The position numbers were made by a program, and so were the translations under genes. A DNA stretch of 56,346 nt, filler included, from Bipalium vagum (Eukaryota): the NCBI GenBank assembly GCA_037834085.1. It is 3 parts of 3 records of this genome, joined end to end, with 100 filler letters (N's around TTAATTAATTAA, not from the genome) between each part and the next. Parts side by side here need not be neighbours in the genome. Positions count along the whole stretch, not along the records: positions 39,801 to 56,346 come from JBBMKC010106225.1; 2 more parts are not named here. The stretch is one strand, 5' to 3'. Shown piece after piece: positions 11,001 to 56,200 of this stretch (its first letter is position 1; each line of letters starts with the position of its first letter). Below the pieces are notes generated by a model, which saw nothing but the letters and a program-made list of their open reading frames with translations, did not search any database and was not told the DNA's origin.

Positions 11001-13867
11001 AATTGGATTTTTTAATCTAATTTTTTTACGACAAAAATGTAATTTCTATAATTGTTATTGTTTTACTTTAATTTTTGATAATTAATATTTTGTCCCGAGT
11101 AGTTCGTGCGTTTTTTATGATAAAACAGAAATTTTTTTATTAAACATAAGCACCCATTGTGTACGATAATTATTCCACTGTTACCTGGAATAAATGTTAT
11201 CTGTTGCCAAGTGTTTTCAATTATTTTGTATACAAAAATTTTATATACAGGGTGGTCTTCCGAAAACCGGGAAATTTCGGAATAAATTTTTCAAAACGAA
11301 CTCTCGGTTTTTTCTTTGACCAAGTTCGGTTATACTTCTTCACTATTTTAGGGTAAATCGGACTACAACATGTGTCAAATACTCCTTTAAAATACGGATC
11401 ACTTAGTTAATTGATCATTTTGATCTTATTTGTGCTATAATATCATTTTCAATTATATAACTATGAAGTCTAAATGAATTGATTATAAAAATTTTAATTT
11501 TAGAAAAATCGAAAGTTGCAATGGAAGATCGGTATCAAATACCTCAAAGATCAAATACCAGCGTCCATGTTTGTTGGCATCGGAATTGCAGCTTGGCATT
11601 CACAGAAATTCTCAGAGCAAATGAAGTTGGTGATATACTTTAATTGAATAACACAATTTCAATTTAACTAAAGCTACTTTTTAGTGAATTCTAAAGATAA
11701 ATTAATTTTGGTTTTTTGGAAATTCATTACTGATCTTCTTTTCCATATTATATTACATTTGTGAATTATGAAGTAATAAATAATATGGTATTCCGTATAG
11801 TCCATGTTTATTTATATGTTAAAATTGACCTCGGAATGGTATTTATAATAATTATTAATAATAAGATAGGGAAAAACAATTAAAAGTTTTATGTAATCAA
11901 TTAAAAGATAGCTCATATTTCAATAATTATATAATTTAGAACGAGTTGTCTGGATATTTGCTAAGAAAGTTCAAGAATAGCAACGGCTGGCAAAAACTTT
12001 GGGTTGTATTCACTCAATTGTGCCTCTTTTTCTTTAAAAATTATCAAGATGATAGCCCCTTAGCCACACTACCTTTAATTGGATATCTTGTCTGCCAACC
12101 GTCTCCCGAGGATCAAATCAGGAAGGATTTCGTTTTCAAATTGCAGTTCAAAAATCATGTGTACTTTTTCAGGGGAGACAGTCAGTATACTTATGATAGG
12201 TAATCTGTTACTTGTCCATGGTCGAAATTTGTTCGTTCATTAATATTCTCAAATCTCCTTAATCGATTTTTATGATATTTTGTTATGATAAAATCATTAA
12301 AATTAATTTTATTCTTTTATTTTCTGTTGAACCAAGATAGTCAGTATGAAATATAAAAAAATACATTTTTAAAATTTAAAATAGACTTAGTTTGTCATAC
12401 AGGTACGAAATAACTTTCCAAGCAGCTCAATTTCATTAAAAATTTGGAAATTAATTAATTTTTCAAAAATATTTTCACACTCTTTAATCATATAATTAAG
12501 TCAAATGATACAAAGGTGAGCTTAAATCTAAATAAAATATCAAAATAATTATTTTTTATTTATTTTTATTTTAACAGAAAATATTATGGAATTGTTTAAT
12601 TTAAACTTTTATTTTAAAATTAATTTATTTTATTCTTTTAAGATTCTCTATTATATCTATAAGCAAAATATTGAAATATTTTGTTTCGCGTTTCATTAAA
12701 TCAGACTTACAAACAGATATGAGAAGCTAATCAATATACCTTAAAATAATAAAAATTATTATTATTATTATTAAAGGCACGCGTTTGTGACTAATAAAAA
12801 TTATTAATTAATATATCCGTCTTATTTCAATTCATTTATCAATTTTAACGGAAATCGGCTTTACGAGCTAAATAACAAATTACTTAATATTCTCTGCTTT
12901 TTCCTCTTATTAGATTTTTCTTTCAACTCACCCAACATAAAAGATATTTTTATCCGATTTATCATTGGAGTAATTTCATTTTCTATTCACCTATTTTTCT
13001 TATGGTTTTTATATTATTGTTCGGTTATTTTATCACAATATCTTCGGCTATTTTTATCCATGTTTTGAAAATAGTAAAATATTATTGATTGCTGTTCATA
13101 ATTCAGGTTGAAATAGCGAATCTATAAAAGAAAGAAAATGAAAATTTCTAATTCGAATGTATTTTTTGCTTAGAAAATTAATAAGTCATCCTGTAATAAT
13201 ATCATTTTAGACATTATATCTCGTTTTATGATACCCTTATTTTTATATATTTTTAAGGTAAAGAATTTACCTATTAAATCTTGGTAACATTGTTTGTTTT
13301 ATTTATTATATTAATAAATTCTATACTAATACAAATTATATAAAAATTAAATAAGTTATCAGTAAAACTGGAAATTTTAAAAGGCCTCTTTTAGATATTA
13401 AACTGATCTGTTCCATTTTAAAAATTTAATGGAAAATCGTAAAGCCATTGATAGAAAACACTTCAACTTCATTTTTCCACTAAAAATAAAAAATAATACA
13501 AATAGTAATATAAATTAACAAGTAAATTTTCAATTAGAATATTGATTTATATTCCACTGATTAAATTAAATATATAATATTAATAAATTAATCAATCCTA
13601 TTTTCAGTCAATCGATTTTATTGAGTATTGTATATTTAAAGAGCAATTATCCATCAAAATATAAAATTATTATAAATTATTAATAATAATATTTTTAAAA
13701 TGATCAAAATTGATTTGATAATAATAATAATTAATAATAATAATAATAAAATGACAATGAGAACAAAATAAAATTATTTCAGATGGTTCGAGTGTTTGAA
13801 TGCGGCAACAGGTTCTGCCAACAAGCTGAAGTCTGCACCCCTCAGCCAATCAGGCCATAACCGATAA
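2040..13867 (+). CDS. FARP: FARP1/2-like FERM-RhoGEF-PH protein, 3' portion (end of DH domain, PH1, PH2). Exons 2040-2277, 6643-6938, 10721-10973, 11504-11625, 11940-12199, 13783-13867
   Basis: All five junctions are GT-AG and phase-consistent. Spliced product has FARP hallmarks: FESQKVCYMPL..HRILQY, REGWLQKLGKKGYQQRMFFMFSD, QFK|VHGQFPL, SNTSVHVCWHRN, SGYLLRKFKNSNGWQKLWVVFT, KDFVFKLQFKNHVYFFR, R|WFECLNAAT; stop TAA at 13865-13867. The 5' exons were not found in the window. Confidence 0.93.
5066..6297 (-). mobile_element. Decayed Tc1-like transposon in a FARP intron
   Basis: TA-CAGTCGTGAATGATGAAAACCACACC at 5066 is an imperfect inverted copy of GGTGTGTACTTTTCATTGTCCACGACTA ending 6297; minus-strand DDWFCIAFIDESSF resembles the first-Asp motif W..V.FSDES. 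Confidence 0.7.
8215..9062 (+). mobile_element. Mariner transposase pseudogene with 3' terminus
   Basis: SGRPK, KLDKWIPHQLT (WVPHEL), IVTCDE, FHQNNTKPH, LLNRWEAVIEKDGEYLD; ends ...CGTTACCTGATA; frameshifts and internal deletions. Confidence 0.85.
9950..10210 (+). mobile_element. Short mariner C-terminal remnant
   Basis: VPSDYYLFQSMLNYFNGKQFESF at ~10110-10175. Confidence 0.6.
11245..11279 (+). repeat. Tc1/mariner-type terminal sequence, second copy at ~20325-20358
   Basis: TACAGGGTGGTCTTCCGAAAACCGGGAAATTTC here versus TACAGGGTAGTCATCCGAAAACCGGGAAATTTC at ~20325; a TA-CAGGGT start is typical of Tc1/mariner TIRs. Confidence 0.6.
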
Positions 13868-15921: not shown

Positions 15922-17028
15922 ATCCAGAGGCTGGTTGTTAAGTTCCTTTATTTGATTCTTCATTACTTAAATTAACTCTAAATTCCTTATTTAAGGACTC
16001 AATTTAAAGATTGGATACTTCATATTTTAATTCTAAAGCATTGTTTTAAATTTTCTAATCTCAAGCATTTTATTGTCCCTGAAAATGTGAAAGAATTTAT
16101 TAATCTCCAAAATATGCTATTAAAATTAAATTACATAATTTTTCATTTAAATATTAATACAGTACAACTCGCTTAATATCACGGCGTCAGTTACAGAAAA
16201 AAAATATATTAACCGGGTCGTGATATTAACCATCAACTCGCTTTATATCATGATTCATAATAATAACCGAAAAAATGATTTTTTAAATAAAATAAATAAA
16301 TAAAATAAATAAATAAATAAATATATCAACCAAGGCCTAAACCAAATTAGCATAGTAATTTTCTTTATTATTTTTATTTAACTTGGTATATATTTGGTAT
16401 AGAAAGTCAACAATTTTTATTAATAGTTTTTTACATAAATCATTTGTTTATTTGTTTTATGGTAATGTTAATAATTGATAATTTATAATAAATAAATTAA
16501 TAATAATAGCAATATTAACAATAATAATATTACCAATAACAATATTAACAATAATTATATTCGTTTTTTGACTTGATGATTCCATATTACAAAGATAATA
16601 AAAAAATCACAAAAAAGAATTCTTTATCAAAAATGTCGTTATTTTGGGATTCTCTGCATATGATACTTTTATAAATTGAGAAAGATCGAAAGCAGGATCT
16701 TTTAGTGCATCGTCATCCATTTTGCTTTGCATTTCTGTCATGTCAATAGAGCAAGAAGAACATTTTGGACAGGAAATCATCCAATCTTCCGATAATCACT
16801 ATTTCATAGGATTATCTTCAATTTGTTTTCCCATTTTCCATTTTTCTCTTTTTGTTTGTGATTTACACAACAGTTAGGTTTGGTAAATCATCTCAGGACC
16901 TTACCACAGGTTACAGAATAACTATGTAAGGATTTAAGGATTCTCGTTTTGAAATCCCCTTGTAAACTCACATTTTTACAAATAAAAATATTTGTATTTG
17001 ATTTCAGTTGTTTTTATTTATCCTATTT

Positions 17029-17128
17029 NNNNNNNNNNNNNNNNNNNNNNNNNNNNNNNNNNNNNNNNNNNNTTAATTAATTAANNNNNNNNNNNNNNNN
17101 NNNNNNNNNNNNNNNNNNNNNNNNNNNN
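17029..17128. other. Assembly gap with artificial spacer
   Basis: 44 N + TTAATTAATTAA + 44 N. Confidence 0.97.
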
Positions 17129-17999
17129 ATATTTGTAAATTCCCTCTTTTGGACTTCTTTAAAAATAAAAAATACTTTTGGAGGGTTGTTTTATTTTCTA
17201 AGTATTTTCAAACTAAAAATATCTGGGAATTTTTAATCGCTTTTCAAGTGTTTTTTATTATTATTATTATTATTAATTTTTTTTATTTTTACTTTTTTTA
17301 ACATCTATACTCTTTTTATGATTTTCCTTGATTATCTTTCCTCGGGGGGTGCCTTGGATAAACCCAACAGAACTATGGATAAGAAAGGCGTATTTTTGGT
17401 TTCCAAGTAATTTCTTGTTTAATCTCTTAAAAAGACATTTATGAGGACAGAAAAAGGAGTCCAAAGAAGATCTGTAAGACTATGGTAAGATTTCTTCAAC
17501 GAAAGAAATGTATTTTTCTTCGAAAATGGTCTCTTTTCATTAGTAAATCGATGGACGATGTGGCGGGAAGCAAAAATTGATTATATAGAAAAAGGATTGT
17601 GTGTGTGTGTGTTGCCTACAGAGTTCATTTTTTAGAAATAAAAGATTTCATCTTAGTATCGATCACATTTCTGTGATTTTATTCAAACCACAAATATTTC
17701 TCTTTATTTAAGGAAAAAGTGCCTGGTGAAGACAACAATTTGCACCATCATTTCAGAAGAACCAGAAATTCGGGCATGTTTAAAGTATACTTCGGAGAAA
17801 TAATCATTTTATTAAAAATTTTTAATGGTAAAAGGATGACCTCTTCATCGTGGAAAATATTCAATGATACAAAACTGAAATGGTTTATAAAATATATTTT
17901 TGAAAAACTTTCGAAATCAATAGGAAAATTTTTGTCAATTTTCTGAAATTATTATTAATATTATTTGTTAAATTATTATTATTGGTGATATTATTTTTA

Positions 18000-19919: not shown

Positions 19920-20870
19920 CAAAAATGCAAAATTATAGACCAAGAAAACAGCATTTGCGGGAATAATTATTTTACTACAATTAAAGAAATCAGCAGTCGA
20001 AGCTCATAAATTAATATCAAAGCTTAGGGTAAATATGCACTGACATTTATTATAATTATTTTTAATATTTAAAAAATGAGTTAATTTTATTTATGATGAT
20101 ATCACTAAACGTTGATATTTAAATAAATCTATTTTTATTGACATTATCTTTTCAAATTCCCATACATCTTCTCTTCTATATTACTATTTAATTTTCCAAG
20201 GTGTTTTAAACCGTATTATTTATTTGATCTTTTATTATTTTTTCTGGGTGTGAATAAAATTGATTACTCCAATTTCATTTGTTTCTGTATTAATTTTAAA
20301 TGTAATAAAATCTGATAATTAAATTTACAGGGTAGTCATCCGAAAACCGGGAAATTTCAAAAAAAAATATTTACAACAAATATACATGAATTTCATAAAT
20401 GTTCAAAATGGCATCCCTGCTCAGCATAACATTGTCCTAACAGTGGGATCCAAGCTTCCCTTGCCGTTCGAAGTTATTCCACATGCAATTTAACGCTAAA
20501 CAAGCTAGGCGGAATACTCAAATTATTAAATACATTTTGATCACTTTATCAGTTTTAATTATTATGTTTATAGCACGAATCTGGATACAAAATTCTACAT
20601 GACCTCTCGCCTACTGATTATCATTTTTCAAACATCTGCTCTCTTTCATTCTGGAAAAAACTTGTAGAACCAGAATAATGTCAAATCGACCTTTAACGAT
20701 TTTGTCGCCTCCAAAAAACCAAACTTTTATGACTGGAATATAAAAACTTGTCTCACGATTGGAAGTATGTTCAATCGAATGTTTGTTATTGTGATTAATA
20801 GAATTTTTACGTGTCTTATCGTTTTAAAATTCAATTTCGAAAACAGAAATTTCTTTTGCATCAACCCAAT
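19920..20870 (+). mobile_element. Fragmented mariner element
   Basis: N-terminal KQHLRE..KSAVEAHKLI at ~19945-20015; DLSPTDYHFFKHL at ~20600; 3' TIR-like TTCTTTTGCATCAACCCAATA ending ~20870. Confidence 0.7.
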
Positions 20871-39612: not shown

Positions 39613-39700
39613 ATATAATAGTAACTATAAGGAATTATAAAGATTTTACGTAATCTTTATAATTCAGTAAAATCAATAATTACAATTGTTTTAATTATTG

Positions 39701-39800
39701 NNNNNNNNNNNNNNNNNNNNNNNNNNNNNNNNNNNNNNNNNNNNTTAATTAATTAANNNNNNNNNNNNNNNNNNNNNNNNNNNNNNNNNNNNNNNNNNNN
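39701..39800. other. Assembly gap with artificial spacer
   Basis: 44 N + TTAATTAATTAA + 44 N. Confidence 0.97.
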
Positions 39801-39802
39801 CA

Positions 39803-40390
39803 AAATTAAATCTGGTCTCTAGAATGACAGATGGTAAAAATATTAATATTAATTTTTTGAATAGAAACTGTATAGAACTAAATTTAACAGAAGGTACAAC
39901 ACAAACCTTACAAATATATAATATACCTAATATTCCAATTTATTTATTTATTGCTTTTAGAGAAGCAGATTTTGATTATACAAAATAATAGTTTTTTATT
40001 CAAGATAAAATTAAATTGTTACAAGTTCAACTTTCTGATTCATTATATCCTATAAAACCAATAAAATTTGAAAAACGTTATAATAGTGAAACTTATTTGA
40101 ATTATGTAAATGCTTGTAAATAATTTAATAACTATCCATAATTAAGTTTATTAGAATTTCAAAATTTATATTCCATATTTTGTTTTGATTTAACGGATCA
40201 AGCAGAAAATTTATGTATCAATGGAACAAAAATTACTTTGCTTATAGAAAAAGATAATGATTTTAAAGGAATTATGAATTGTGTTTTATTAAGTGAGAAA
40301 TTTATTGAAATAAAACTTGAAGGTGGAAAGATGATTAATTTTGAAGTTAAAGCAAAAATAGATCAAATTTCAAAAAAAATCTTTTTCAAT
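39803..40390 (+). pseudogene. Polinton major capsid protein C-terminal fragment
   Basis: PIYLFIAF..QVQLSDSLYP..EFQNLYSIFCFDLT resembles the C-terminal Y..F.FDL signature of Polinton MCPs; in-frame stops. Confidence 0.65.
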
Positions 40391-41864
40391 TTTATATTTT
40401 TATATAATTATTAAATCATATAGTAATTATTAAATTTTTCTAATATTGTTTTATTGCGCTTTTTACGATATATTTTTTTCTTTTTTAGTAATATACAAAC
40501 AATTTTTTTATTAATCAACTTGTATATTTTTTGTAAATATTTTTTTAGTATAGGTATACAAATAAATATTTTTTTGATTTCATATATTAATCCAATTTGA
40601 AAATAAAAATCTTTTTATTTAGTTTTTTGATTCAATAAAAAAATATTTGTTAATATAGGTATACTAAAAAATATTTTGTAATTTGTCAAGTTATTAGGTG
40701 AGTTACATTTTTTATTTTTTTTATTAAAAAATGGTAGATTATTATTTTAGTAAATATTGTAATAAATATATTTCAAAAAATAATAAATGGAATTATGAAA
40801 AAACTAAAATACATATTGAAAAGTAAGTGTAAGTAAGGAAGTAAATAGAAAGTAAGTAATGTAAGTAAGGAAGCAAGTATTCTTAGTAAGGAAGTAAGTA
40901 ATCTAAGTGATGTGAAAATAGCAGATGATAAATTAAGTATTGCAATAAATGATTCTTTAATAAATAAATTAAACAATGAAAAAAAAGAAAAACTAATGTA
41001 AAAATCTTTATAAAAATCTTAATAAAGATAAAGATGAAAAGAAAAAAAAATAGGAGAAGCTAAAATTAATATTCATGAAGAAAATTATGAAAAAATAAAA
41101 TTAGAAATACAAAATTTTAAAAATATTATAAAAAAAATGAAGAAAAACTTAAACAAGTTAATAATTTAGAACTTAATTTAAACCAAAAAGAAAATATTGG
41201 GGATAAATTAGAAAATTTTTTTAATAATTATAAAAGAGATAATGATTTACAAAAAAATTATGAAAACTTATGTATTAAAACTGAACAATTGGAAAATTTA
41301 GAATCTAAAATATCTATTGAAACAGAAATTAAAAAATATAAAAAAAGAAATTTATTGTCTTAAAGGAGGATTAAATAAGACTGAAGAACTTATGAAAGTA
41401 ATGAACACGAGTTTTAATTTTAAATATGAAAAAAACGATTGGAAATTTGAAGAAAGAAAGTTTCTTAGAAATTGAAAAATATAAAAATTAAGTTGAAAGA
41501 TTACAAAAAATAATATTAAATACTCATGGACAAATTGATAGAATACATCAAACAGAATTTAAAGGAAAATCTATTGCAGTACAAACAGAAATTACTCGAA
41601 CAAAATTTATAAAGATATATTATGAAAATAAAAAATTATTCAAAGAAAAAAATAAAAAATTGAGGAGATGAAAGCGAACAATGCTCTTATGAAACAAAGT
41701 TTCATAGAAAAAGATAAAGAAATTTACAAAAAATTATCAAGTGAAAGAATGAAAGAAACCAACAAACCTTCATTTTGGATCATTAGATACTATGATTATT
41801 TCACAACATTTCAGTATTATTTTGTAAATAATAAACTAATTAGAGATGATTTAAAAATAAGATA

Positions 41865-42427
41865 TTAGATTGTCCAGTATGAAATTGCGGATTTTCAATA
41901 TTATTTTTAAAAAGTCAAAAACAGCTTGTAAATAAATTTTTTTAATTAACATATTTCCATTCGCTTTTGACACACTGTTGCCATCGGGACAAAACCTTTT
42001 AAATTCCTTTTTGACTTCAATTGGGCTTCATTTAAGAGGGACTTGGGTCTTCCGCGGTCTTGGTTTTGGAGATTTAGGTCCCCGTCTCGAAATTTTTTGA
42101 ACCATATCTATGTTGTTCTTTTGCTTATACTACTTTCACCTCATGCAGAATTAATGTTTCGAGTTGATTCTGATGCATTGTGGTTCAGTTTGAACTTGTA
42201 TAATATGAATACTCGAATTTGTTGATCAACCATGTCTAGTAAAGAACGATAAAAAAACTTTTACTTTAAATTAATATGCTTACTTTTATATTTATATAAA
42301 AGTTTGAAAGTTACTCTTTAATTTGGTATATATAAACAAACAATTTATTGTTAACGTTTGTGATTAACTTTAATTTGAAAATAAATATAAAATTAATAAA
42401 TCCGCAATTTCATACTGAACAACCTAA
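41865..42427 (-). mobile_element. Internally deleted mariner with both TIRs and TA TSD
   Basis: TA|TTAGATTGTCCAGTATGAAATTGCGGA ... TCCGCAATTTCATACTGAACAACCTAA|TA; minus-strand IRVFILYKFKLNHNASESTRNINSA and RGRPK. Confidence 0.9.
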
Positions 42428-42429
42428 TA

Positions 42430-44510
42430 TAATTGAATATGTTCAGTTCTTTATCCATAAAATGCTTCTTTTGGTTTTAGTTTAGATAATTCTGAATCAG
42501 TTTTAAAATTTTTAAAATCAGGATTTTCTAAAGGCTTTTCATATTCGCATTCCCATAATTCTATAACTTCTAATTTTAAATTTGTATCTTTAAAATATTT
42601 TATAATATTATTCTTTTTTTCTAAAGTTCGATTATTTAAACATTCCATTGTTTTATTTCCTCTATGTCATATTTCTTTTTTATCATAACATTTAGGGCAG
42701 CCATAAAAATAGCAACCATTAAATTCATAGATATAATGAATTTTAAAAGTTTGATCATAATAAAATCCGTCAACTTTATATGTTTTGGAAGCTTTGCTTC
42801 CAAGAGCTTCGCTTGTATTATTAACTCTAATTGTTTTTTCTCCTCCTTTGCATGTTGAATTTTTATATTATCAATTTTACTTAACTATTCTAACCAATGA
42901 ATACATTTATAATAATATATATCTTCAAAATTACTTAATCTCGGTATTCCAATTTTTTCATTATTTATCACGGACATAAATATGTTTGTAAAATTTGTGC
43001 TATTGTCATATGTTGAAAAGGATCCATATTTAAAACGTTGTCATTTGAAATATTTATGTTTAAAAGAAATCTCTATAAATTAAAAAACCTTTAGTTAAGA
43101 TCATAACATCTGTTAAACAATAATAAAACATTTGATTTTGAAAATTAAAAACTTCATTCTTTTTTTATTTTTTCATCATACAATTGTCTTAATTTTTTTT
43201 CTTTATTATTATCACTCATATAACTATAACCATAACATTCTAAATCTGGACATTTACCAATGTAATTTTGATTTTTTGTTGCATTGAAATAATGTGGACA
43301 ATATCCTTTGGAATCTTTAAAACCAAATATTTCTGGAAAAGCTTTATGGACATAAAGTAAAACTTATTGAATCTACAAATCTTATATTAAAATGTTTTAT
43401 TTGCATGTATGTGATTTTACTTCCTGACCTAATTTTTTCTACTGGCAATTTTGTTTGAATTAACAAACCTAATATTGTGTGGTTATCATATCCTTTTTGC
43501 ATAATGTGCTATTAAAGTATATATTTCAAAATCTTTACAAATAAAGAATTTACAAAATGTATCATTTAAAGAAATTGAGTCTTCAATTATTATTTCTTCA
43601 AAAAATCTATATTATCTAAAATATTTTCAATTGTTAAATTTTCTAATTTTCAGTAATAAGTTTAAAATGTGATATTATGTTTGTTTGTATTTTAAAATAT
43701 ATTTTTCTTTCTGAATCATAAGCAATTGCGTAATTCATTACATGATAACCAGCTGTTTCTTGTGTTCCTTCAAATTCAAAAAATATATTTATTACTTTGC
43801 TTAAATTTTCTTTCATTGTTTTTAAATAACATTTGTGATTATTGAATGGAGGTTTGTATTGTTCATTAAAAATTGGGCAATTCTTATTACCACACTTATG
43901 TTGACATGAATTAAAACATTCTTCATTAAAAATATCAAAAACTATTTTATATTTATAAGGTTTACAATTATCTATTTTACATTTATTACAATATTTTAAT
44001 GATTGTAAAAAAGCTATTATTTTTGTAATAGAAATAAAATGATGATTTTCTTGACCATAATAAATAAAAGTTTGTTTCTCAAATTGTTCATTTCCTCTAT
44101 ATAAAATAGAATTAGGTTGATTATTATTATGAGAATAAACTATAATTCTTATTTGTAAAAAAATTTCAAATTGTTTTAAATCACCAATATTATTTCCAGT
44201 TTCTTTAATTTCTACTTGAGCCATATTATGTAATTTTATTGCCCATTCTTCTTGAATTGGATCACCTCTTCTAATTTATCTAATTCTATTATAACGTTCT
44301 CCAAATTTTAAAAAGTTTTTGTTTTTAAAGTTTTCATAAGTTAAAGAAGTTATTATTGATCTTGCTAAACAAATTGTATCATTATTTTGAGTTATGTTAA
44401 TAGAATTCTGTACAAAATTTTGTAATATTAAATTTTTAGAATTACTTCTACTATAATTAACATAGTTTCTTTCTTTTCCAACTGGTATTGGTAAAAGTGA
44501 AAATTCAAAA
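42430..44510 (-). pseudogene. Polinton protein-primed family B DNA polymerase (N-terminal, exonuclease and insert regions; truncated)
   Basis: NDTICLARSI, FFEFEGTQ (ExoI-like), KGYD (ExoII), RFVDS, KGYCPHYFN, YCLTDV (ExoIII), DPF..TIA, VDGF..YEFNGCYFYGCPKCY, WECE, EAFYG*RTE. Confidence 0.9.
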
Positions 44511-45300
44511 ATTACAAATTTTGGCAATTATTATGGAATTTTGCATAACGTTTTGGTATAATTCAATTGAGATCATAGCGATTTGTTCCGAAATGTGGTC
44601 TTTGAGTTGTGTAATAGTTTTGGGTTGATTAATATAAACTATATCTTTTAGATATCTCCATAAGAAATAGTCTGGAGCCGTCAACTCGGCTTTGTTGCCC
44701 AAACTCAACAATTTTGTTTATTAAAAACACCTTCACTCAAGTGAAAATTACTTTCATCAGTCAATGATTTTTTTTCCAAAAATGAGGATCCGCAATTGAT
44801 CTTTCTAGCAACCAATTACAATAATTCAGGCGACTTTGATGGTCTGATTCTTTAAGCTTCATAACTACGTTAAGCTTATAGGCTTTCTTATGCAAATCTT
44901 CATGCATTATCTGCGAAAAACTGGATTTTGAGAGGTTTAATTCCTGTGCTCTATTGAGGTGCATTTATTGTCTTCAATACTCTCGCGTGTACTTGCAATA
45001 TTTTCAGGTATACGCACAGATCGAAGTCGTCCAGATTTTGGTCTGTCTGCTACCGAGCCAAATGCTTCAAAAGCATTAACCAGATTGTAAATTGTTTGTT
45101 TTGGTGGACATTTGTTTTTCCCAAATTTTGCATTTAATTTTTTAACGCTTACTGAATTTGAACTACGGCCGTGATAAAATATTTTGACAAGTTATGCCCG
45201 CTGTTGCATATTATAACGATCCAAAACTACAAGTCGAAAAATATCATCCTTTATGAGAACCGTTATAGATCCAGACGATTTAAAAGAATTGATTACTCAA
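44511..45300 (-). mobile_element. Tc1/mariner-superfamily transposase remnant nested in the Polinton
   Basis: RPKSGRLRSVRIPENI, DESNFHL, NKQN, ELTAPDYFLWRYLKDIVY (PDLTP.DFFLWGYLK type). Boundaries approximate. Confidence 0.85.
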
Positions 45301-45379
45301 GTACCCATACATGACGATATCAATTTAAGTAATTATTTTCTCGACTTGAGGCGATTTTGTAAAAAAAGTCTTAGCGACA

Positions 45380-45458
45380 TTTCTATATTTTTCTATATAT
45401 TTCTGAATAATTTTCTATATTTTTCTGAATAATTTTCTATATATTTTGAATAATTTTG
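45380..45458. repeat. Degenerate ~21-bp tandem repeat (TTTTCTATATATTTCTGAATAA-like) x3-4
   Basis: Directly visible. Confidence 0.7.
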
Positions 45459-47459
45459 TAACTCTAAATTTTTTCCAGAACAAAGTTACTATATTATTGT
45501 TTTAATATTTTAAAGTGAATCAAGGTTTGTTTATCAAATAACCAAAATTATTATTTTAATCATTTATTTATGTTATTGTTGATTAAAATTTGCATAAATA
45601 CTTGCTAAATATTTATAATTAAGGTATAAAATTATCAGATTATCTAAACTTATTTTAAATATTTGGTTTAAATTTAGGTTCTTAAAGAATCTTTATGGTT
45701 TCTCGTATGGCAATTCAGTGAAAACTGTTCACTATTTCATTTTCTATTATAGAATTGTAACCAACATATTTTTGGTAAGTATTTGTTATTTTCTATCAAA
45801 GAAATTTAGTTACTGAGATAAGAAAAAATTCTAATACTTGGTTTTTGAAGAATTATTGAAGGTTTTAATTTTGAAATAGGAAGTATATCCTTAGAAATTT
45901 CATAGCATAATATTCAAAATTTTAAGTTAATATTTAAGTTTTGTTTAGTATTTCGCTTTGATTAATTTTTTAATATAAAATTTAGATTAGAAATTTTGTT
46001 ATGTTTAGTTTACTTACCCCAGAGTTCATTTAAATAAAGAACTTAATTTATGATGAATTCTATAGATGTAATATTATCAATTCAATATGATTATTATTAC
46101 ACAATCAAATAATACTTAATGATATATGATTTTAGTATATTATAAGGTAATATTAATAATACGAGTAATATTTATTGTAATTATAAATTTTTAGCATAGG
46201 TCATATCGAGCATATTTTTGTTATGATTGAATATTATTAATATTAATAATCTGAGACAAATATTTAACAACATCGTTACTGTGCTCCTTACTAAGTTTAG
46301 TAGTCTTTATAAAAAAAACTATAATCAACCTAGCACAATAAGCTATTGTTTTTATGATAATATCTTAGCACAAGTGATCAGTCAGATATTTGTCAATAGA
46401 GCTTAGTTTCTTTTAGTAACAGCAACATTGAAATAATCAAAACAAATAAAAATGTACTTACATTGCAATTTTAAAAAAATCAAGCCCAATTTACGTTTTT
46501 CATGGTTGAATCCCACCAATTGTAAGTAGCTAAGTTGACTTTTGACTATAGCACAATCTTCTATAGACTAACATACTAACATCATAAATATTTAAAATTA
46601 TTATTTATTACAATATATTTTCTGTCAATTTTGAGATTTCAATTCTAGATGAATTTCATTTTATTTTGTTAAGTTTCTAAAGGTGGTTTTATATTATTAG
46701 GAAACTTAACACAAATATATGTTTGTCTGAAAGAATGGATGTTTATGTAACTCCGGGTCAAATATGCAAAATATGGTATTAAAATTAAATTAACTTACAC
46801 CAATTATGTTTCTAATTGATTCAAATATTCAATATTCCTTTTATTATAATAATTATATTTATTATCCATATTATCATGTATTTTTGTCAACTCGGTCAAA
46901 AAAGATACTTGATACATTTGACCGGTCAAAAAAGAGATTTGATAGTCATTTCATTAAGAAAACCGTTTTCATTATAGCACGCCCAAAAAATTATCAATCT
47001 CAAATCACCAATTATCTAGTTATTATCGCTGATCTATTTATTATTGACGAATATTGATGTTAACATTTTTTTATTCTTTGCTCTTCTAGTCAAATTTTAA
47101 GAATTCTCTTTAATCTTTTATCAATGGCCTTTGTATGAGTTTTTCTTAAATTATAGAAAAGTAATATTGATACCCACAAATGTTGTTAAGAAGAACAGAT
47201 TTATTTAATTAGATTTGAATTTTTTAAATGTTATATTTTTGTATAATTATGTGATGAATATTTTACTGAACAATATCTTTTAATACTCTTATGTAATAAT
47301 TATTTACTGCATAAATTTCCATCGCTCAGATTTATGAATATTAAATATTATAACATATAAGCTTTGTTTTAAAACATTTGTTTAAGTAAGTCATTATTGA
47401 TTATATTGATATACATTAAATCACAATTTATTTAAATTATCCGATTTATTTCAAGCAAT

Positions 47460-48790
47460 AATTATGGAAGATGATAAAATGCATATTCGCCACTACATGT
47501 TGTTCTTTTTCAATCAATGCAAAACATCTACCGAAGCAGCCAGATTAATTTACAAAACTTATAGTATTAAAACAATAGCCAAGGGCTCATGTCGAGAATA
47601 GTTAAGACTTTTTAGAAATGGTGATATTGATTAAAAGAATAGATTTGCAAGTTACTCAGCCACTAGAATTGTGTTCGGACGAGTTGGAAGCGTTTTTAAA
47701 AGAACATTCGACTCAATTGAGTGTAGACATGACGAGAAGACTGTATGATATGTTAATCATAGCAACGTACTTTGGCGGTTGAATCAGATGCGGTAAATCT
47801 GAAAGAAGGAAAAATGGATCACTCATGAACTATCACTCCTGCCACCATTTGTTTTTCGCTTCTTTGTAGACACGAACATTTCTTTTCTGTATAGAATTGT
47901 AACTGAAGACGAAAATATACATATGTATAAAGTTAAATAATTTTATGGGGTTAAGAATATCGAATTTGGTCGGTAAGTAACAACAAAATAATTTCAAATC
48001 AGAAGGCTTTATGGTGTGTAATTCGGAACAAATAAAACTCAAAAAATTTCAAAGTAATAATAAAATCGAACTTTAACAAATATGTTTATTTGTAAAAATT
48101 GGCGATTACAATTTATTTTACTAGGAAACTATTATCCTTATTATATATTTTTTATTAATATAATATAAGGCTAGTCAATGTTTTCTCAGATTAATTAATT
48201 TTTAAAAAAAAAATTTAATAATAAAAATAATAATTGTTAGTTTTTTTACAGGCTTTTGTTTTGCTGAGTTTCTTATTTTACATACACAAAAAGGAAACTG
48301 AATACAACACAATAGGTAAAGAATGATATTATTAAAATCACATAGAATGTTTAAAAAATCATTTATAAGGATAAAAAATTGTTTTTTCTTTTTGAGTCTC
48401 CATAGTATTATAATCTCAATTGCAAAAGATCATTGGTTAATCCTGGAAATATTTTTATTCACCAGGTCGTCCTGTTTATCCAGTGGGACATGACGGTGTG
48501 CTTTGTTATAAACTATTAAAACAATCTGAGGTTGTTGCTGTGGTCACCAATTGACATAGTTCAACGAGTTATTATTGCCGGACGATGATATTTTGCAAAG
48601 GCTACTGATCTATTTCATTCCATGCATCATAGTCTTTCTGATGTAAATTTTAGTAATTTTGAAGAGGTGCAGAAATTTATTGACAGTTCTATTCAAGCTT
48701 AAAGATTTTTTCCTCGGGGTTTATCATTTTTTGTATGAAAGATGGGAAAAAGCAGTTAATAATGATGGAAAATATTTTGATTAAATGTAC
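47460..48790 (+). mobile_element. Mariner fragments (N-terminal ~47465-47835, C-terminal ~48400-48785)
   Basis: KMHIRHYMLFFF..TEAARLI, KWITHEL; LFHSMHHSL, RWEKAVNNDGKYFD. Confidence 0.8.
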
Positions 48791-49200
48791 CATGTTATTT
48801 TTCTGTTATTTTTAACGTCATTTTTATTTTTACTACTGAGGTCATTTTCTGTATTTGCTTTTGTGTTTGACGTCATTACATTATGTTTAGCTCAAGTTTT
48901 CCCTTTTGTCTGGCGTCAACTCAACTTTTCTTTCTTATTTATTATTATTACTATTTTATTCATATTGTTAAGTTCCTAATAAAGATAAGTTCTTCACTCC
49001 CTCGTATGCGGATTTGTTTTAGGTCTTATTGAAAATATTAAATTTCCTGTGTCATTTAAAATTTTTATTGTTTCTGGATCTAAGCTTACTTCATAATAAT
49101 CTGTTTTTTCATATGCTGTCTTTCGATGATAGTAATTTTTATCATGAATCAACGCTTTTTCATTTTTTAACAAAATATAAAATTTTTGAAAAATACATTT

Positions 49201-49465
49201 TTACTCAAATGTTGATGGCAATATCTTTTTTGTTTCTAAATTTATAAAAAAATAATTATATTTTTTATTCATATAAAAATTAAATAAACAATCAAATTCC
49301 TCTTTTTCAATAAAAGCGGATAACATTTTTGAATAAATTTGAAACTTATCATTTTTAGAAATTTCAAATAAAATTAAAACCTTTACATTATTTCTTTTTG
49401 ATCTTAAAGGCAAATCAACAAAAGATTGTGATAAATATATTACTGAACAATTATTATGTCTTCCT
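49201..49465 (-). pseudogene. Polinton packaging ATPase, C-terminal half (split by insertion)
   Basis: GRHNNCSVIYLSQSFVDLPLRSKRNNVKVLILF, an A32/FtsK-type GRH..Q..R.N signature. Confidence 0.88.
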
Positions 49466-51139
49466 AGTAGTAGGTAAAACCATACTTTGGGGACAGGAAC
49501 CCAATTTTTTTCGGTCGCCTGGGTTGGGGGTCCCTCAAAAAATAAAAAACGTTGGGGCATATTTTTTTGACTCTTTCAGTCGCTTCGCTCCTTCAAAAGA
49601 GTCAAAAAAATATTTCCTCTCCCCAAAGTAGTTTTACCTACTACTTCATTTATTATATTTTTATATTACTAGTTTTTAAAAACTTTAAAATATCAAATTA
49701 AAAAAAAATTTAATAATTTAGGGTATTTTTCAGTTAATTTATAGAGTTTTATTGAAAAATATAAATCCCCCTTACTTATTTTAATATTATTTTGTATTAA
49801 ATAAAGTATAGTTAAATTAAAATCATTATTAAAACTTTTTAAAATTTTATTTAATAATAAAACCATTTTTATTTTATTAAAAAGTGTATTATTTAATAAA
49901 ATACTTTCATTCATGAGACATTCTTTAACTTTTTGTAATAAAACTTCTAAATTTACAGGAATTGATAAGTTGAATGCATCAATATCGTTAATAACTTTCA
50001 ATCTTTCTACAAGATTTGCTTTTAAATAAGTTTTGGTGTCTTCTAATCTAATTTTAGACTTTCTTCTGATTTTCTTTCCTATTTTCTTCTTTCGTTTTCT
50101 TTATTGCTTCAATTTCGTTGTTTATAAATTTTGGATTGAACACATTTTGGTTTGCTTCGATTATATTCCCGACATAATTGGAATACTCTTCTTTTCGTCT
50201 ACATATTTTTCTTTAATCTCTTAAAGCATAAAAAGTAGACATTTGGTTGATAATAACGTTAAATCTTGAGAAGGCTTTCTTTTGAAAGGTTCCAATATAA
50301 ATTAATGTATTACATAAAAATATAATAAGATAAGATGTTACCTTTATACATTGAAATTCAGGTTGTTAAGCAAAAATAACATTTAACACTATAGTTACAA
50401 AATAAATTAACTTAGTAAAACAACTTTACTTGACAGTTATTTTAAAATTGAGTTTTCTGTAATTCATTATTGTAAAACCTTCCAATTATTTTTTTCCCAT
50501 TTTTATCAATTATTCCATAAGCAATTGGGTTGTAAAATAAATTTCATTAATAATTAATAATTCATCATTCCATTTAGCTGTATATCCTTTGTCAAATTTA
50601 TTTTTATATTTAAAAATTCTTATATGATCTCCAATATGGAATTTTGGTTATAAAGTTAATTGAGAAATAGGTGAAATTTTAACAGTTGCTTTATTTTTTA
50701 ATTTTTCAGGATTTTTAGAAGCCTCATTAGGAGAAATACCAATTGAACTATGGATTTTATTATTATTAAAATTAATTAAATTATGTAATAAATGAATCCA
50801 TTTTCTATTTCCTTTTTCTGTAAATTTTTTAAACATTAAATTTTTTGTAATTTTATTTTTTATGGAAAAATGTAATTTTTCTATTTTTTTTTAAGAAAAA
50901 ATTTGATATTTTTAAATTTTTAAAAACTAGTAATATTAAAATATAATAAATGAAGTAGCACATAAAACCGTACTTTGAGGAGAGGAGATACTTTTTTGAC
51001 TCTTGAAGGAGCGAAGCGACTGAAAAAGAGAAAAAAAAACATGCCCCCAACGTTTTTTATTTTTTGGGGAGCCCCTCCCCCTACGCGACCGAAAAAAATA
51101 TTGGGGTCCTGTCCCCAAAGTATGGTTTTACCTACTACT
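49466..51139. mobile_element. 1,674-bp non-autonomous mini-Polinton with ~235-bp TIRs and 6-bp TSD
   Basis: CTTCCT|AGTAGTAGGTAAAACCATACTTTGGGGACAGGA ... TCCTGTCCCCAAAGTATGGTTTTACCTACTACT|CTTCCT; TIRs ~49466-49700 and ~50900-51139; carries an integrase 3' fragment. Confidence 0.93.
50440..50836 (-). pseudogene. Polinton integrase C-terminal fragment inside the mini-element
   Basis: KWIHLL..NNKIHSSIGISP, PKFHIGDHIRI, FDKGYTAKWNDE, GRFYNNELQK. Confidence 0.88.
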
Positions 51140-51300
51140 CTTCCTCGAGTGAAATACATTTCCATAATATTTTGAGTTTTTTCATTTATTATATCATCAT
51201 CAAAAATAATTAAATTTTTTAATTTCGTATCTAATTTATTAGGTGGTTGAATTTCAGTTGCTTTGTCAGATAATTTTACTTTTTTCGGACTTTTTATTCA
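51140..51300 (-). pseudogene. Polinton packaging ATPase, Walker B segment
   Basis: PPNKLDTKLKNLIIFDDDII..MEMYFTRGR joins in frame to HNNCSV after removing the insertion and one TSD copy; Walker A not seen. Confidence 0.85.
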
Positions 51301-51379
51301 ATAGCATCACCATTAAGATCTCCAGTCGCTTCCTCCTCAAATTTATATATTTTTTCATTTTTAAACATTTGACAAACTT

Positions 51380-51731
51380 TTCTCGTAAGGATCAAAATAT
51401 AGACCAGCTCCGCTGGCTGGAGTGAATCTCAACCTGATCTTTGTTTTATAATTTTGATTTTATTCTTACAAATTTTTTGTAATAAATTCTTTTCTTTCAG
51501 ATTTCTCTAAAATTTTATATTCAGAACTATTTAGAATTATCTTTTAAACCTTTTCCAAAATAAGGATCTTTTCATTCTCTGCATTATTTTTGCTGCTTCT
51601 TTTGCTTTCTGAATAGTTGTTGCAATACCTCCTGCAACTCTACCAGCTACTTCTAATCCTGCAAATATTGCTCCTAAAATTGGAATTAATGGAATAATTC
51701 CGCCTTGTTTTTTAAAATTTACATTTAACAA
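51380..51731 (-). pseudogene. Polinton adenovirus pX-like small virion protein remnant
   Basis: KKQGGIIPLIPILGAIFAGLEVAGRVAGGIATTI, followed after frameshifts by GKGL and GAGLYFDPY. Confidence 0.65.
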
Positions 51732-53029
51732 AAAATAAAATATTTTTATTTCCTAAGATAGTTTTTAAGAAAAAAACTTATTTTTAAAATTAAAATAAAT
51801 ATATTTTTATTACATCACAGCGATTTGTTATTGGTTTAAGTATAGAATGCCATTCTGTAATTTTACCAATCAAATTAAAGTTTATTTTGATCACATAAAC
51901 TCCGAATTGTTTTAAAGTTTTTCTTAATAAATTATAATGATAATCCATAATTAAAAATTTTTTATGTTTTTCAGAAAAGCATGAAAAGCGAATTTAAAAA
52001 TCAATATACTCTTTTGTATAATCGATTCCATTATTTTTCAATAATCCCATATAATTTAGTTTAGATAGGATTTTTAATTTTACAAATGCTTTTCCTTGAA
52101 TTGAATAAAATGTTTGTTGATCTTTGTAATTCTTTTTAGACGAAGATCACATTTTTAATGCCACTCAAACAATTTTTCAAATTTGATAAAGCAGATAAAT
52201 TAGACATATTTTTCACTAGTCTTGTATTATCTATCTATTCTTGAATTTAAAATTTTATTTAAAATTTTCTATTATTCATTTCTCTCTTTTTCTTCTGTTC
52301 TGTAATGATATTTTCTAATATCCTATCACTATTTGATTTTGATGAGTCCAACAAATCATCTTCATTAGGAGATACCATTTCAATATTTTCATTTTTGATT
52401 AAAAATAAATTTTTTACATTTTGTCATTATATTTTTAGACAATGATCATTTCCATAATTTAGATTTAGATAATTGGTTCATTTTTCATATTCTTTAATTT
52501 TAATTATATCCACCATTGCCTAAAAACTATAATTAAAATGAATAAATATAAATTTTAAGTAATTTATTTAATAAATCGATTTGTGACCAGTTTAGTCAAA
52601 TTTAATTTAAGAAAACCTTTTGGTTAATTTTTCTTAAATTAATTTTGAAAACAATACCTGATAATAATAAAATTTTACTTGATCTTTTTATGTTGAAAAT
52701 AATAAATAGATTTTTTTGATGATCTGTTATATATATAAATTACTAATTGTTATAGTTACTATTGACATTATAAAAATTACAAATATAACAATTAATTTCT
52801 GACATTAGCATTCTAAAAATAATGATAAAAAAAATAAATTTAAAAAATGATAAATAAATACTAAATAATAAGAAAAGTTTATGAGAAATTTAAAATTAAA
52901 TTTCCTTTCCATTTTTGTTTAACTTTTTCATATTTCATTCAATTCTAGAAAGTATTCATGTATTTTATGAGCGATTATATCTTAAAATCAAATATTTTCT
53001 TTAAGATGAAGATTTCTGAAACTCTGAGA

Positions 53030-53245
53030 CTTCAGAACTCTGAGCTACGCTGCAATTCATTCTCATAAAGTCTACCTAATATTTTTCTCCTCTTAAATCA
53101 ATAATTCCATAAACAGATGGATTTGTAAAATAAATTTCATTAATAATAAATATTTCATTTGTCCATTTTGCGGTATATCCTTTTTCAAATTTATTTTTAT
53201 AAAAATTCATACACGATCTCCACTATGAAATTTTGGTTTTGAAAG
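53030..53245 (-). pseudogene. Second Polinton integrase C-terminal fragment
   Basis: KPKFHSGDRV, NKFEKGYTAKWTNEIF, GEKILGRLYENELQR; clearly homologous to 50440-50650. Confidence 0.85.
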
Positions 53246-56200
53246 CTTTTCTTCAGAAAGCAGAGCTCGTAAGAATAATTGAGAGACAGAGGAAATTTTA
53301 TGGGTTGTGTCTACTTTTAATTTCTCATAAATAATTATTTTAACCAATTTGAATTTGTCTTATAATCATAGAATATTACGGTTTATTATCCATATAAGCT
53401 TCTTTGTAATCTGTTTATTATAGTATTTGTTTTAAAATATAGTTAGAATAGTTCTACGAACTTCACACTAACTCAATACAAAGACTCAAATTAATCAAAT
53501 AAGAAATCTAGATTGTTTGAAATAAAATTCATATTTTTGAAATCGCGATTACAAGTTTTATTTGAATTGAAATGCTTTTTCAATATTACTGAGGCTCAAA
53601 GAATGGAAAAATGGTGATGAAAAATATTAACAAACTTTCAAATGACATTGGCTGAATATTTTTTTAGTTATTGGTTATTTTATTGAGCTTATTTTCTTGA
53701 ATTATAATTTTGTATAACTGTTCATTTAAATATTTTTCTAATATTAGTTTCCGATTCCAGTAATATATTTAAATTCAATTTTCAATATATATTACTAAAA
53801 TATACTGTTTCCCGATGGAAAATTTAATACCTTTTTCAAAATTAAAATTGCTTGAGTTATTCAACATGTAATATCTCATTTCGTCTTCATTTTCAATCGA
53901 TATTAAAGAAAGACAGATACCACGTAGTTTGAATACTTTCCAATTAATTATTTTCAAAATTACAGTCAAATTGTTGATTCTTATTTTATCAGTTTCTGAT
54001 AATTTTCTTTTTCCCGAAAATATTTCACAGTTTGCAATTTGATATTTGATTTTGATGATGAATATATTAAATTTATCAAAAAGAATTTTCTCATTTTTTA
54101 TTGGTAGAAATTTCGTCAATTTGTAACAATGGAATTCATTCATACCTTGTTTGAGTTGCTTTTCCGTTATTCCAGGATGAGGAACGTTTAAAGATATAAT
54201 TCCTTTTCTTGAGGAAAATATTGTATTTAATATTCGTTATTCCTGAAAGTTTATTACTATTATGGTTAATATTTATTATTTGACTATTTATTTCTTTTAC
54301 TGTTGTGAGTGATAAGACTCTGATTTCTTCGTTTGGTAATTAATGTCCAACTTGTTGAAGTTTGCTTAAAAGACTTTCCTTCATCATCATTACAATCATT
54401 ATGTATGTACAATACATCAATGTAATACCTGATTCATATTTAAGACATTATTTCGTTGCCTAAATTTTTTTCTGCAATTCTTAATTGTAGGTTAGATAAT
54501 TGGAGTAATGTTAAAAAATTATAAAAATTATTCCAATTATGCTTCACTAATTTCATAATGCACATTATAAAATATTATTAAATTTGTATTATTGTCTATT
54601 AAGAAATAGTCTTAAATAATTATTCTTAATGCACACTAACAAATATTATTTAATTTTTGTTTTTGTACTATTACATAATTAGTCTTAATAAGATAGAAAG
54701 TTATTTTTATTACTATATACATTCATGTATTTAACATTTGATAAACATGGATAGTGAATTTTAATTGATGCAGCAGTAAGATTGAAACAAAATTCATAAA
54801 GCACTTAAGAAATAAGGAAAATTTTAAGAATACATGTAATTCAAAGCATGACGAATTAAAATATGATCATATAAAGTTTATCACACCAAAAACCTTAAAT
54901 ATTTTGAAATTGAATAAAATTATTTACTTCGATAAGACTTATTTTATATTATCAAATACTGTCTTGTATCTGATGTGTATTTTGTATATATGTTTTTACA
55001 TATTGTAATATTAGGGTTTTCGCTGACATTTTAAATGTACTGACTATGATTTAATTGATTAACAATATTATTTTCTGTCTAAAATCGTTTTAGAAACAGA
55101 AATTGGTTTTTTCTATTTTTATAAACTGATAAAACTTTATTAAAAGTAGAAAATTAATTAATATAAAGAAAATGATAAACTTTTATAAGTCAATGAAATG
55201 ATCAAGTGTTAGTTAATCAAAGATTGGAGAGAAAAGAATCATTTTGTAAATATTCTAAATTTATTCTATATTTAGTACTGTAATTTGTAAATTAAATCTT
55301 AAATGATAGTGGTTTATTAAATACTTAATACTCGAAATAATTTCTCTAAAGACGACAAATGAATATAGATGTGAGGCATAGCTAAATTAAAAACATAATG
55401 AAAAAACACCTTCGACTCGGCTTGATGATCCATAATATAATGTTTACCTAAGTGGTAGCGATAACTTTGAAGTATGATGATTGACCATGGTCATAACATT
55501 AACCTCATGAAGATTATTAAAATCTGATTAGAAAAGATGGAAAGCACGACAATTCCGATGTCACCTCTGACTCATGCGTACGTCTGTCAATGAGAATTTT
55601 GTCTAAAAAAAATAGAAAATGGCATAGTTGAGAGAAGAATGATTGTCCTAAAAAATAAAATAAAACTCATTTTTCGTAATATGGTTTTCATAGTTTATAA
55701 TACTAAAATAAGTACACAAAATAAATTGAATAAATTGTTTAATATTTAATTTTAGAGTTTCCGTGCCTATTGGATTCATAATAATGCATTATACAATGTA
55801 CTTTAGCACTGTTAAACTATTTGTCTAACTTAAGTGTAATATCAAGTATAAATGTAACAATTTTAAAATAAAACTAAGTCAAATAAAATACTAATACTAA
55901 ATTATGTTATGGTTTTAAAAAAAAATTAAAAAAACTTTTTAGTGTAAAGACAAAAATCTTTCTCTACAATATAGATTGAGTCAACATTAGATTTTCTTAA
56001 AACCAAACAGTATTTTATTGAAAAAAGTCTTTCAGTGATAGTTGAGCGTGTATGTATTGACAATTCTTGAATAATTATCTTTAACATTAAGGGAAATATT
56101 TTTTCGTTTTTAATTCAAAATTTCTTGTATAAAAAATTTCCAAAAAAACAATTAATTTCTTTGGCCAAGGGATCTTTCACGATTATATATACCTTTTATT

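Follow-up and report, generated by a model that had tools for sequence, protein, structure and literature searches.

The window analysed here, a 56,346-nucleotide stretch of DNA from Bipalium vagum, is AT-rich (19-36% G+C). Genes lying in a single frame encode a cytochrome P450, a RING protein and a rhodopsin-family receptor, which makes an animal host likely. Positions 49466-51139 (1674 bp) hold an element that is, judged by its sequence, a non-autonomous Polinton/Maverick derivative. It starts with (AGT)2 and finishes with (ACT)2, the Polinton 5'-(AGT)2...(ACT)2-3' motif, and is flanked on either side by CTTCCT, a perfect 6-bp target-site duplication (TSD). Two contigs of sequencing run X1 skip 1680 bases here, and 6 letters fit either side, as an empty site would. 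The terminal inverted repeats (TIRs; 253 and 266 bp) fall within the Polinton criterion of about 50-1500 bp, and the interior is Polinton-gene-derived DNA that includes a 3' fragment of an rve integrase gene. The features of the target site and the reading frames are as follows:

49460..49465 (+), left TSD copy, CTTCCT (sequence; empty-site contigs in X1)
51140..51145 (+), right TSD copy, CTTCCT (sequence)
50445..50857 (-), 3' remnant of a disrupted rve integrase gene of Polinton type (relatives with PF00665; tblastn)
49693..50100 (-), 135-codon open frame that lacks a start (reading frame only)
51140..51282 (-), interrupted ATPase gene, upstream piece, part of the target (tblastn with P0005 (PF04665), 66%)
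49204..49465 (-), interrupted ATPase gene, downstream piece, part of the target (P0005, 67% identity, E 1.6e-28; also tblastn)

The integrase fragment has 4 relatives among 105 candidates, two of them with PF00665, and P0001 matched it by tblastn with an E of 2e-31, in two frames. No loci related to this fragment or to P0003 were found in viral_contigs. The 135-codon open frame yielded no Pfam family and no relative among 182 candidates; by eye, it may resemble the front of some Polinton polymerase genes. An autonomous Polinton/Maverick, defined by intact pPolB, integrase, ATPase, protease and capsid genes within 13-25 kb, was ruled out by the length of 1674 bp and the presence of gene fragments only. 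On the matches to P0005, the insertion target is the A32-like packaging ATPase gene of an older Polinton. A PDB sequence search with the ATPase piece returned chance matches only.

Older Polinton debris surrounds the element from 40000 to 53500, with ATPase pieces and a second integrase piece at 53044-53239. By eye, this region also contains a capsid C-terminus-like frame (40142-40414, +) and a protein-primed polymerase-like frame (42451-44527, -), and neither has a Pfam match. Frames at 44500-45200 and 47400-48750, amid the same debris, resemble Tc1/mariner transposase fragments by eye. Just upstream of the ATPase remnant, 51537-51752 (-) is a 71-codon frame with a hydrophobic glycine-rich stretch and a weak, chance-level Pfam match. 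Elsewhere in the window, two 64-nt copies that are 80% alike (11237-11300 and 20317-20380) start with a TACAGGGT-type motif and may be the ends of another DNA transposon. Long inverted repeats at 17025-17139 and 39690-39810 were discarded as assembly gaps, in which TTAA repeats border stretches of N, and have no biological meaning.

Layout and predicted fold of the nested terminal repeats

Aligned by blastn, the two TIRs (49466-49718 against 51139-50874) share 85.5% identity over 269 columns. Each ~255-bp TIR opens with a fold-back unit, 180 nt long on the left (49466-49645) and 186 nt on the right (50954-51139), in which the outer end is followed by two side stem-loops (arms A and B) and an inverted copy of the end. 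About 70 nt of inboard TIR come next. The component parts are:

49466..49718 (+), left TIR, made up of the fold-back unit and the AT-rich inboard stretch (blastn, 85.5% to right TIR)
49466..49499 (+), left outer end arm (one of 34 positions differs in the right outer arm)
49500..49557 (+), left side arm A, a short G+C base stem with a weak upper part (base helix mean pair probability 0.92 within the unit; z -0.14 alone)
49559..49613 (+), left side arm B, an 18-bp perfect stem with a 19-nt loop (z -6.89 alone)
49582..49588 (-), GCGAAGC 7-mer in the loop of left arm B (also at 51011-51017 on +)
49614..49645 (-), left inner arm, which repeats the element end in inverted form (differs from the outer arm by one substitution and a 2-nt gap)
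49646..49718 (+), inboard part of left TIR, 7% G+C, unstructured (z 0.28 for 49646-49760)
50874..51139 (-), right TIR (blastn; exact 245-nt X1 contig over 50886-51130)
50954..50987 (+), right inner inverted end copy, decayed (7/34 differences from the outer arm)
50988..51042 (-), right side arm B, decayed (z -1.25 alone)
51045..51106 (-), right side arm A (z -2.56 alone)
51106..51139 (-), right outer end arm (arm comparison)

An earlier sequence-only reading of this DNA had reported that the terminal sequence is answered by an inverted copy at 49620-49645 and by a more diverged equivalent on the right, starting at 50954. Both strings lie where it placed them, the right one being the decayed copy listed above, and the left pairing is longer than it had quoted, reaching the last base. 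Side arm A and the continuation of the TIR for ~70 nt past the unit were absent from that reading. Between left and right, the inner arms differ by 5 substitutions and a gap in 32 positions, the outer arms by 1 in 34, and the inboard parts by 3 in 54. G+C drops sharply at 49646, from 31-48% within the unit to 7% in the inboard part. Owing to the nesting, the left inner arm directly repeats the right outer end, and 51093-51106 directly repeats 49544-49557.

The 6 bases past both inner ends are the same inboard sequence, with no target duplication. This bears on the proposal, made from the sequence alone, that two independent inverted 180-bp MITEs mobilised the DNA between them as a composite transposon, which we consider highly improbable. 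The unit does have two end-like arms, and the DNA between the pair is broken Polinton sequence, but the composite is not supported because the same ~70 nt adjoin both units and neither has a duplication of its own. The two units are one TIR copied to both ends, and the composite is largely refuted at this locus.

Folded as ssDNA, as the sequence-only reading had suggested, the left unit reached -47.7 kcal/mol (z -10.33) and the right unit -33.7 kcal/mol (z -5.34), with 0 of 200 shuffles equally stable in each case. On the left, three helices (15, 11 and 5 bp), interrupted by one mismatch and a 2-nt bulge, join the outer end to its inverted copy, and the last base is paired. The inner stem with a GCTTCGC loop, also noted earlier, was borne out: 49559-49576 pairs with 49596-49613 over 18 perfect bp, and the 7-mer lies at 49582-49588 in the 19-nt loop. 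In the predicted fold, arms A and B close a tight three-way junction with about two free bases, giving a Y. The right unit adopts the same three-way topology with more mismatches, and at each end of the element the terminal base itself is predicted to pair flush. One hallmark of a parvovirus-type rolling-hairpin replicon, a palindromic terminus in which the 3' end is paired on a template, is thereby predicted.

When the middle was folded alone, z was -4.2/-4.6 on the left (both strands) and -2.5/-2.7 on the right. By itself, arm A had weak stability in the left unit and moderate stability in the right one, and arm B showed the opposite. Across the stretch, end-to-end complementarity in 1855 windows of 180 nt scored 46 over the left unit and at most 32 in all others; scored in register, the two units reached 56 and 37. 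The single Rfam match was rejected at 23 bits against a gathering score of 144. The GCGAAGC motif was weakly paired, with a probability of about 0.44-0.54, in a folding model that may lack the special stability of this motif. It occurs in both unit loops and at three further, unrelated places in the window.

Arms A and B (49500-49613) are alike in layout, with a T-run, a G+C core and an A-run, and share a weak direct similarity, the score of which was reached by 39 and 27 of 2000 letter shuffles that ignore the runs of T and A. The two arms may descend from one older hairpin. Repeated binding sites are common at transposon ends, and the inner copy and side arms could be protein-binding sites in duplex DNA, with the inner copy acting as an additional integrase or initiator site in inverted orientation, which assists in bringing the ends together, and the hairpin never forming in vivo. 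This habit of transposon ends, the A/B similarity and the better preservation of outer than inner arms all fit such sites. However, a binding site needs neither an end copied to its last base nor two self-complementary spacer arms, and the similarity between the arms is weak. We regard binding sites in duplex DNA as a quite unlikely explanation of the unit.

Sequence searches were also made with the ends and the loop. The element-end 24-mer had no match in viral_contigs, and no phage match to the TIR was found. The 119 metagenome loci with the element-end 16-mer were rejected as chance, since blastn matches between them and the TIRs do not exceed about 29 bases. The arm B loop motif TCGCTTCGCTCC matched 3 viral contigs, none of them in a comparable fold-back unit, and its literature match was unrelated. 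In one viral contig (L121:1500-1570), three copies of TCGCTTCGCTCC, the motif that also forms the arm B loop, are closely spaced, and we read them as sequence likeness only to this element.

Copies of the unit in sequencing run X1

Evidence on other copies comes from the contigs of one run (X1, share 0.55), which is possibly the window's own source. The X1 alignment held 2317 records, 58 of which fit two places, and the rows listed comprise 40 of 300 substitutions, 12 of 67 indels, 15 of 74 joints, 6 of 655 loose ends and 8 of 2509 pieces. Some outer-end contigs may sit on inner arms in this alignment. The 2-letter insertion rows at 49628-49630 were excluded, as outer-end contigs placed on the inner arm would give them too, and inboard-TIR depth was excluded as likely inflated by AT-rich contigs.

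Records 3 and 7 contain the unit running into the inboard part, with 13 and 21 other letters plus gaps (~10% diverged). At 49623, a letter foreign to the outer ends is present in 13 X1 contigs and accounts for about 70% of the depth there. Because other X1 copies carry it, the inner end is, on these contigs, a family trait, and the inner copy described by the sequence-only reading extends to the family. The element type, the 6-bp TSD, the nested inverted end and its occurrence in other copies are, taken jointly, a conclusion that we hold with high confidence.

Ten of the 40 substitution rows listed (of 300) fall within the units, and nine of these were checked against the window's own helix registers; row 51084 was excluded as having no fixed partner. 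At six positions (49505, 50959, 50962, 50970, 51031 and 51100), the letter with the most depth forms a Watson-Crick pair where the window copy has a wobble or mismatch. At 49623 the most-depth letter turns a pair into G.T, and the checked substitutions at 49499 and 50987 are located at the junction. Because the majority letters pair at the six positions, the outer stem, the A base and the B stem reconstruct as better formed in the family founder than in this copy. Better majority pairing means that the founder had the stems, and it does not imply selection. No compensatory two-sided change was found between the two TIRs or among the X1 rows listed. Both TIRs have the same orientation, and no flipped middle occurs among the 15 joints listed of 74, as flip/flop isomers would show. 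A weakening letter in arm A was carried through copying, since both TIRs share it.

Summed contig depth in X1 reaches ~60,000 on the ATPase and integrase pieces (49300-49465, 50500-50850 and 51140-51250), against ~25 for exact single pieces. X1 holds very many related Polinton genes, or free copies.

Possible origin and role of the branched ends

We prefer, tentatively, a reading in which the Y-shaped unit would prime its own copying while the element is single-stranded. Following excision or strand displacement, the 3' terminus of each strand would snap back, and its last base would pair with the inner copy's first base. From this folded 3' end, a polymerase provided in trans would continue along the inboard TIR into the body with no terminal protein, and copying through the far-end hairpin would restore the duplex (AGT)2 end. 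Insertion with a 6-bp duplication would rely on an rve integrase encoded by an autonomous relative. The fold itself is predicted, and from it we infer every later step. A flush 3' base on a template running into the element would correspond to the geometry of a self-priming parvovirus end.

Self-priming is favored by the flush terminal pairing and the same three-way topology at both ends, by the layout shared with a densovirus ITR, by the retention of the unit in other copies, by the majority letters that improve pairing, and by the terminal palindromes of integrated virophages and PLVs, for which hairpin priming has been proposed. Several observations count against it. Neither compensatory changes nor flipped middles occur in the X1 rows listed, and a weakening arm A letter is shared by both TIRs. 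The inner arms are less alike than the outer arms, a weak sign that the inner copy may be less constrained. The element retains a short tandem end, a mark read as protein priming in the available text of PMC4196379, and protist palindromes occur mostly with non-pPolB replicases in the available text of bioRxiv 10.64898/2026.07.28.741278. As regards a parvovirus-type rolling-hairpin replicon, no HUH/SF3 Rep (NS1) gene was found within 49466-51139. The suggestion from the sequence alone that each terminus has two origin ends is doubtful: the inner copy is inverted and internal and would offer no free end for protein priming, and a cut at the inner copy would split the unit from the body.

The unit could also be the relic of a captured mini-element, a possibility that we hold only slightly more loosely than self-priming. 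A 180-bp end-to-end mini-Polinton, arising by copy-back or internal deletion, would have inserted into an older AT-rich TIR, and panhandle repair would have copied the insertion to the other end. The outer arm would then have become the new end and the sole working part, with the fold as a by-product. Capture is nearly as likely as priming because any complete mini-element gives the same flush geometry. The inboard part lies outside the inverted end, as flank would, and the fall in G+C at 49646 matches this arrangement, as does the decay of the inner arm in single copies and between the two TIRs. Invasion of TIRs by a mobile module has been proposed for PLVs, according to the available text of PMC11296320. 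However, no target duplication is left at the inner end, although the outer copy would have been lost, and two self-complementary arms closing a junction with ~two free bases would be unexpected from random deletion.

Two observations in X1 bear on capture in both directions. In one contig, 49523 is linked to 51105 through 29 intervening letters, a ~120-nt end-to-end form without arm B; it has a depth of 32, just 31 letters on the short side and no flanks. Such a short form would fit a mini-element, but deletion between the direct repeats 49544-49557 and 51093-51106 could explain it. Summed contig depth, which is no copy number, amounts to about 566 and 567 on the two A regions, compared with 54-224 in the interior and 24-27 for exact pieces. 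The excess on the units suggests more of them than the 1674-bp derivative explains, but a MITE would be expected to give a larger one, and further long elements with the same TIR would account for it.

No solo unit with its own TSD was found within the window or among the 6 X1 loose ends listed of 655. Recombination between the left inner and right outer ends would leave a 180-bp unit between the original TSDs, in the manner of a solo LTR, and recombination of 49544-49557 with 51093-51106 would leave a 120-130-bp unit between them. Solo units with TSDs would not be decisive for MITE mobility, because recombination between nested ends makes them. Extending self-priming to a whole lineage, one could envisage an animal Polinton family with parvovirus-like Y telomeres, in which hairpin priming would operate instead of or beside protein priming, rve integration would be kept and 180-bp mini-elements would be shed by solo-LTR-like recombination. 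We judge this wider model to be on the unlikely side.

To our knowledge, neither the exit of a Polinton from the chromosome nor the start of its replication has ever been demonstrated. The predicted flush, branched hairpin is a short natural substrate for a direct test of hairpin priming, and it extends the palindromic ends of protist virophages and PLVs to a likely animal element. If Y telomeres prove true, the element would offer a present-day counterpart of the transition from Polinton ends to those of single-stranded DNA viruses. If the fold is only a relic, it would be a modest example of TIR turnover. There are also two warnings for annotation: software that calls TIRs may halt at the inner end, and recombination can generate solo end units that are mistaken for MITEs.

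Comparison with known systems

Taken alone, the 180-bp unit looks like a MITE, and its nested direct repeat could yield a solo unit much as a solo LTR is formed. The unit differs from a MITE in that it is a fixed part of a longer TIR, and no flanked solo unit was observed.

With Polintons/Mavericks, the element shares the end motif, the 6-bp TSD, the TIR length and the rve integrase sequence. According to the available text of PMC8097293, 5'-(AGT)2//(ACT)2-3' is the commonest vertebrate Maverick end motif, TIRs span 46-1447 bp and the TSD is 6 bp; that text, on Polinton/Maverick ends, makes no mention of a palindromic TIR. In contrast, the element described here is 1.7 kb long, has no intact gene, and bears an inverted second end and two side arms in its TIR. 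The standing Polinton model, as given in the available part of PMC4196379, is protein-primed with a racket-shaped single strand. Repbase and the original 2006-2007 descriptions aside, the accessible literature contained no branched or nested TIR in an animal Polinton. The accessible literature on nematode Polintons and PLVs does not mention a terminal hairpin, and palindromic TIRs in nematode Polintons had no support there. A figure legend in the visible part of bioRxiv 10.64898/2026.10.13.758929 marks a palindromic repeat.

Closer in kind are virophages and PLVs of the protist Halocafeteria seosinensis. In the accessible text of a 2026 preprint (bioRxiv 10.64898/2026.07.28.741278), palindromes lie within TIRs adjoining the TSD in virophage subtypes 1, 2, 5 and 6, as well as subtype 4 of the PLVs; hairpin priming is proposed and accidental annealing named as an alternative. 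The same text gives a gap limit of 10 for the screen and draws a subtype palindrome of 52 nt. A screen with that limit would miss the present unit, because its branched middle is 114 nt. The two systems share a palindrome in the TIR beside the TSD, rve integration, and hairpin priming as a proposal. They differ in that the Halocafeteria elements have a protist host and, in the text available, mostly non-pPolB replicases, whereas the unit here is 180 nt long, branched, and in an element with the classic Polinton motif and a likely animal host.

The sequence-only reading had likened the termini to those of parvoviruses and bidnaviruses. Bidnavirus ends differ, as they form a panhandle between the two genome ends, not a hairpin within one end. 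Densovirus ITRs are acted on by the Rep/NS1 nickase. The parvovirus half of the likeness is apt in layout, to judge from the available text of PMC3820778, in which the ITR of Acheta domesticus mini ambidensovirus is 199 nt long with a 113-nt Y hairpin (stem 45 nt, with 23 nt of arms) and flip/flop is seen. As in that ITR, a terminal stem, two side arms and an inboard stretch are combined in one inverted repeat of similar size. Unlike it, the arms here are ~55 nt each, the element has no Rep gene, and integration occurs with a 6-bp TSD. As far as the available sources extend, palindromic ends are already known in the virophage/PLV group; new here is a branched, nested end in a likely animal Polinton.
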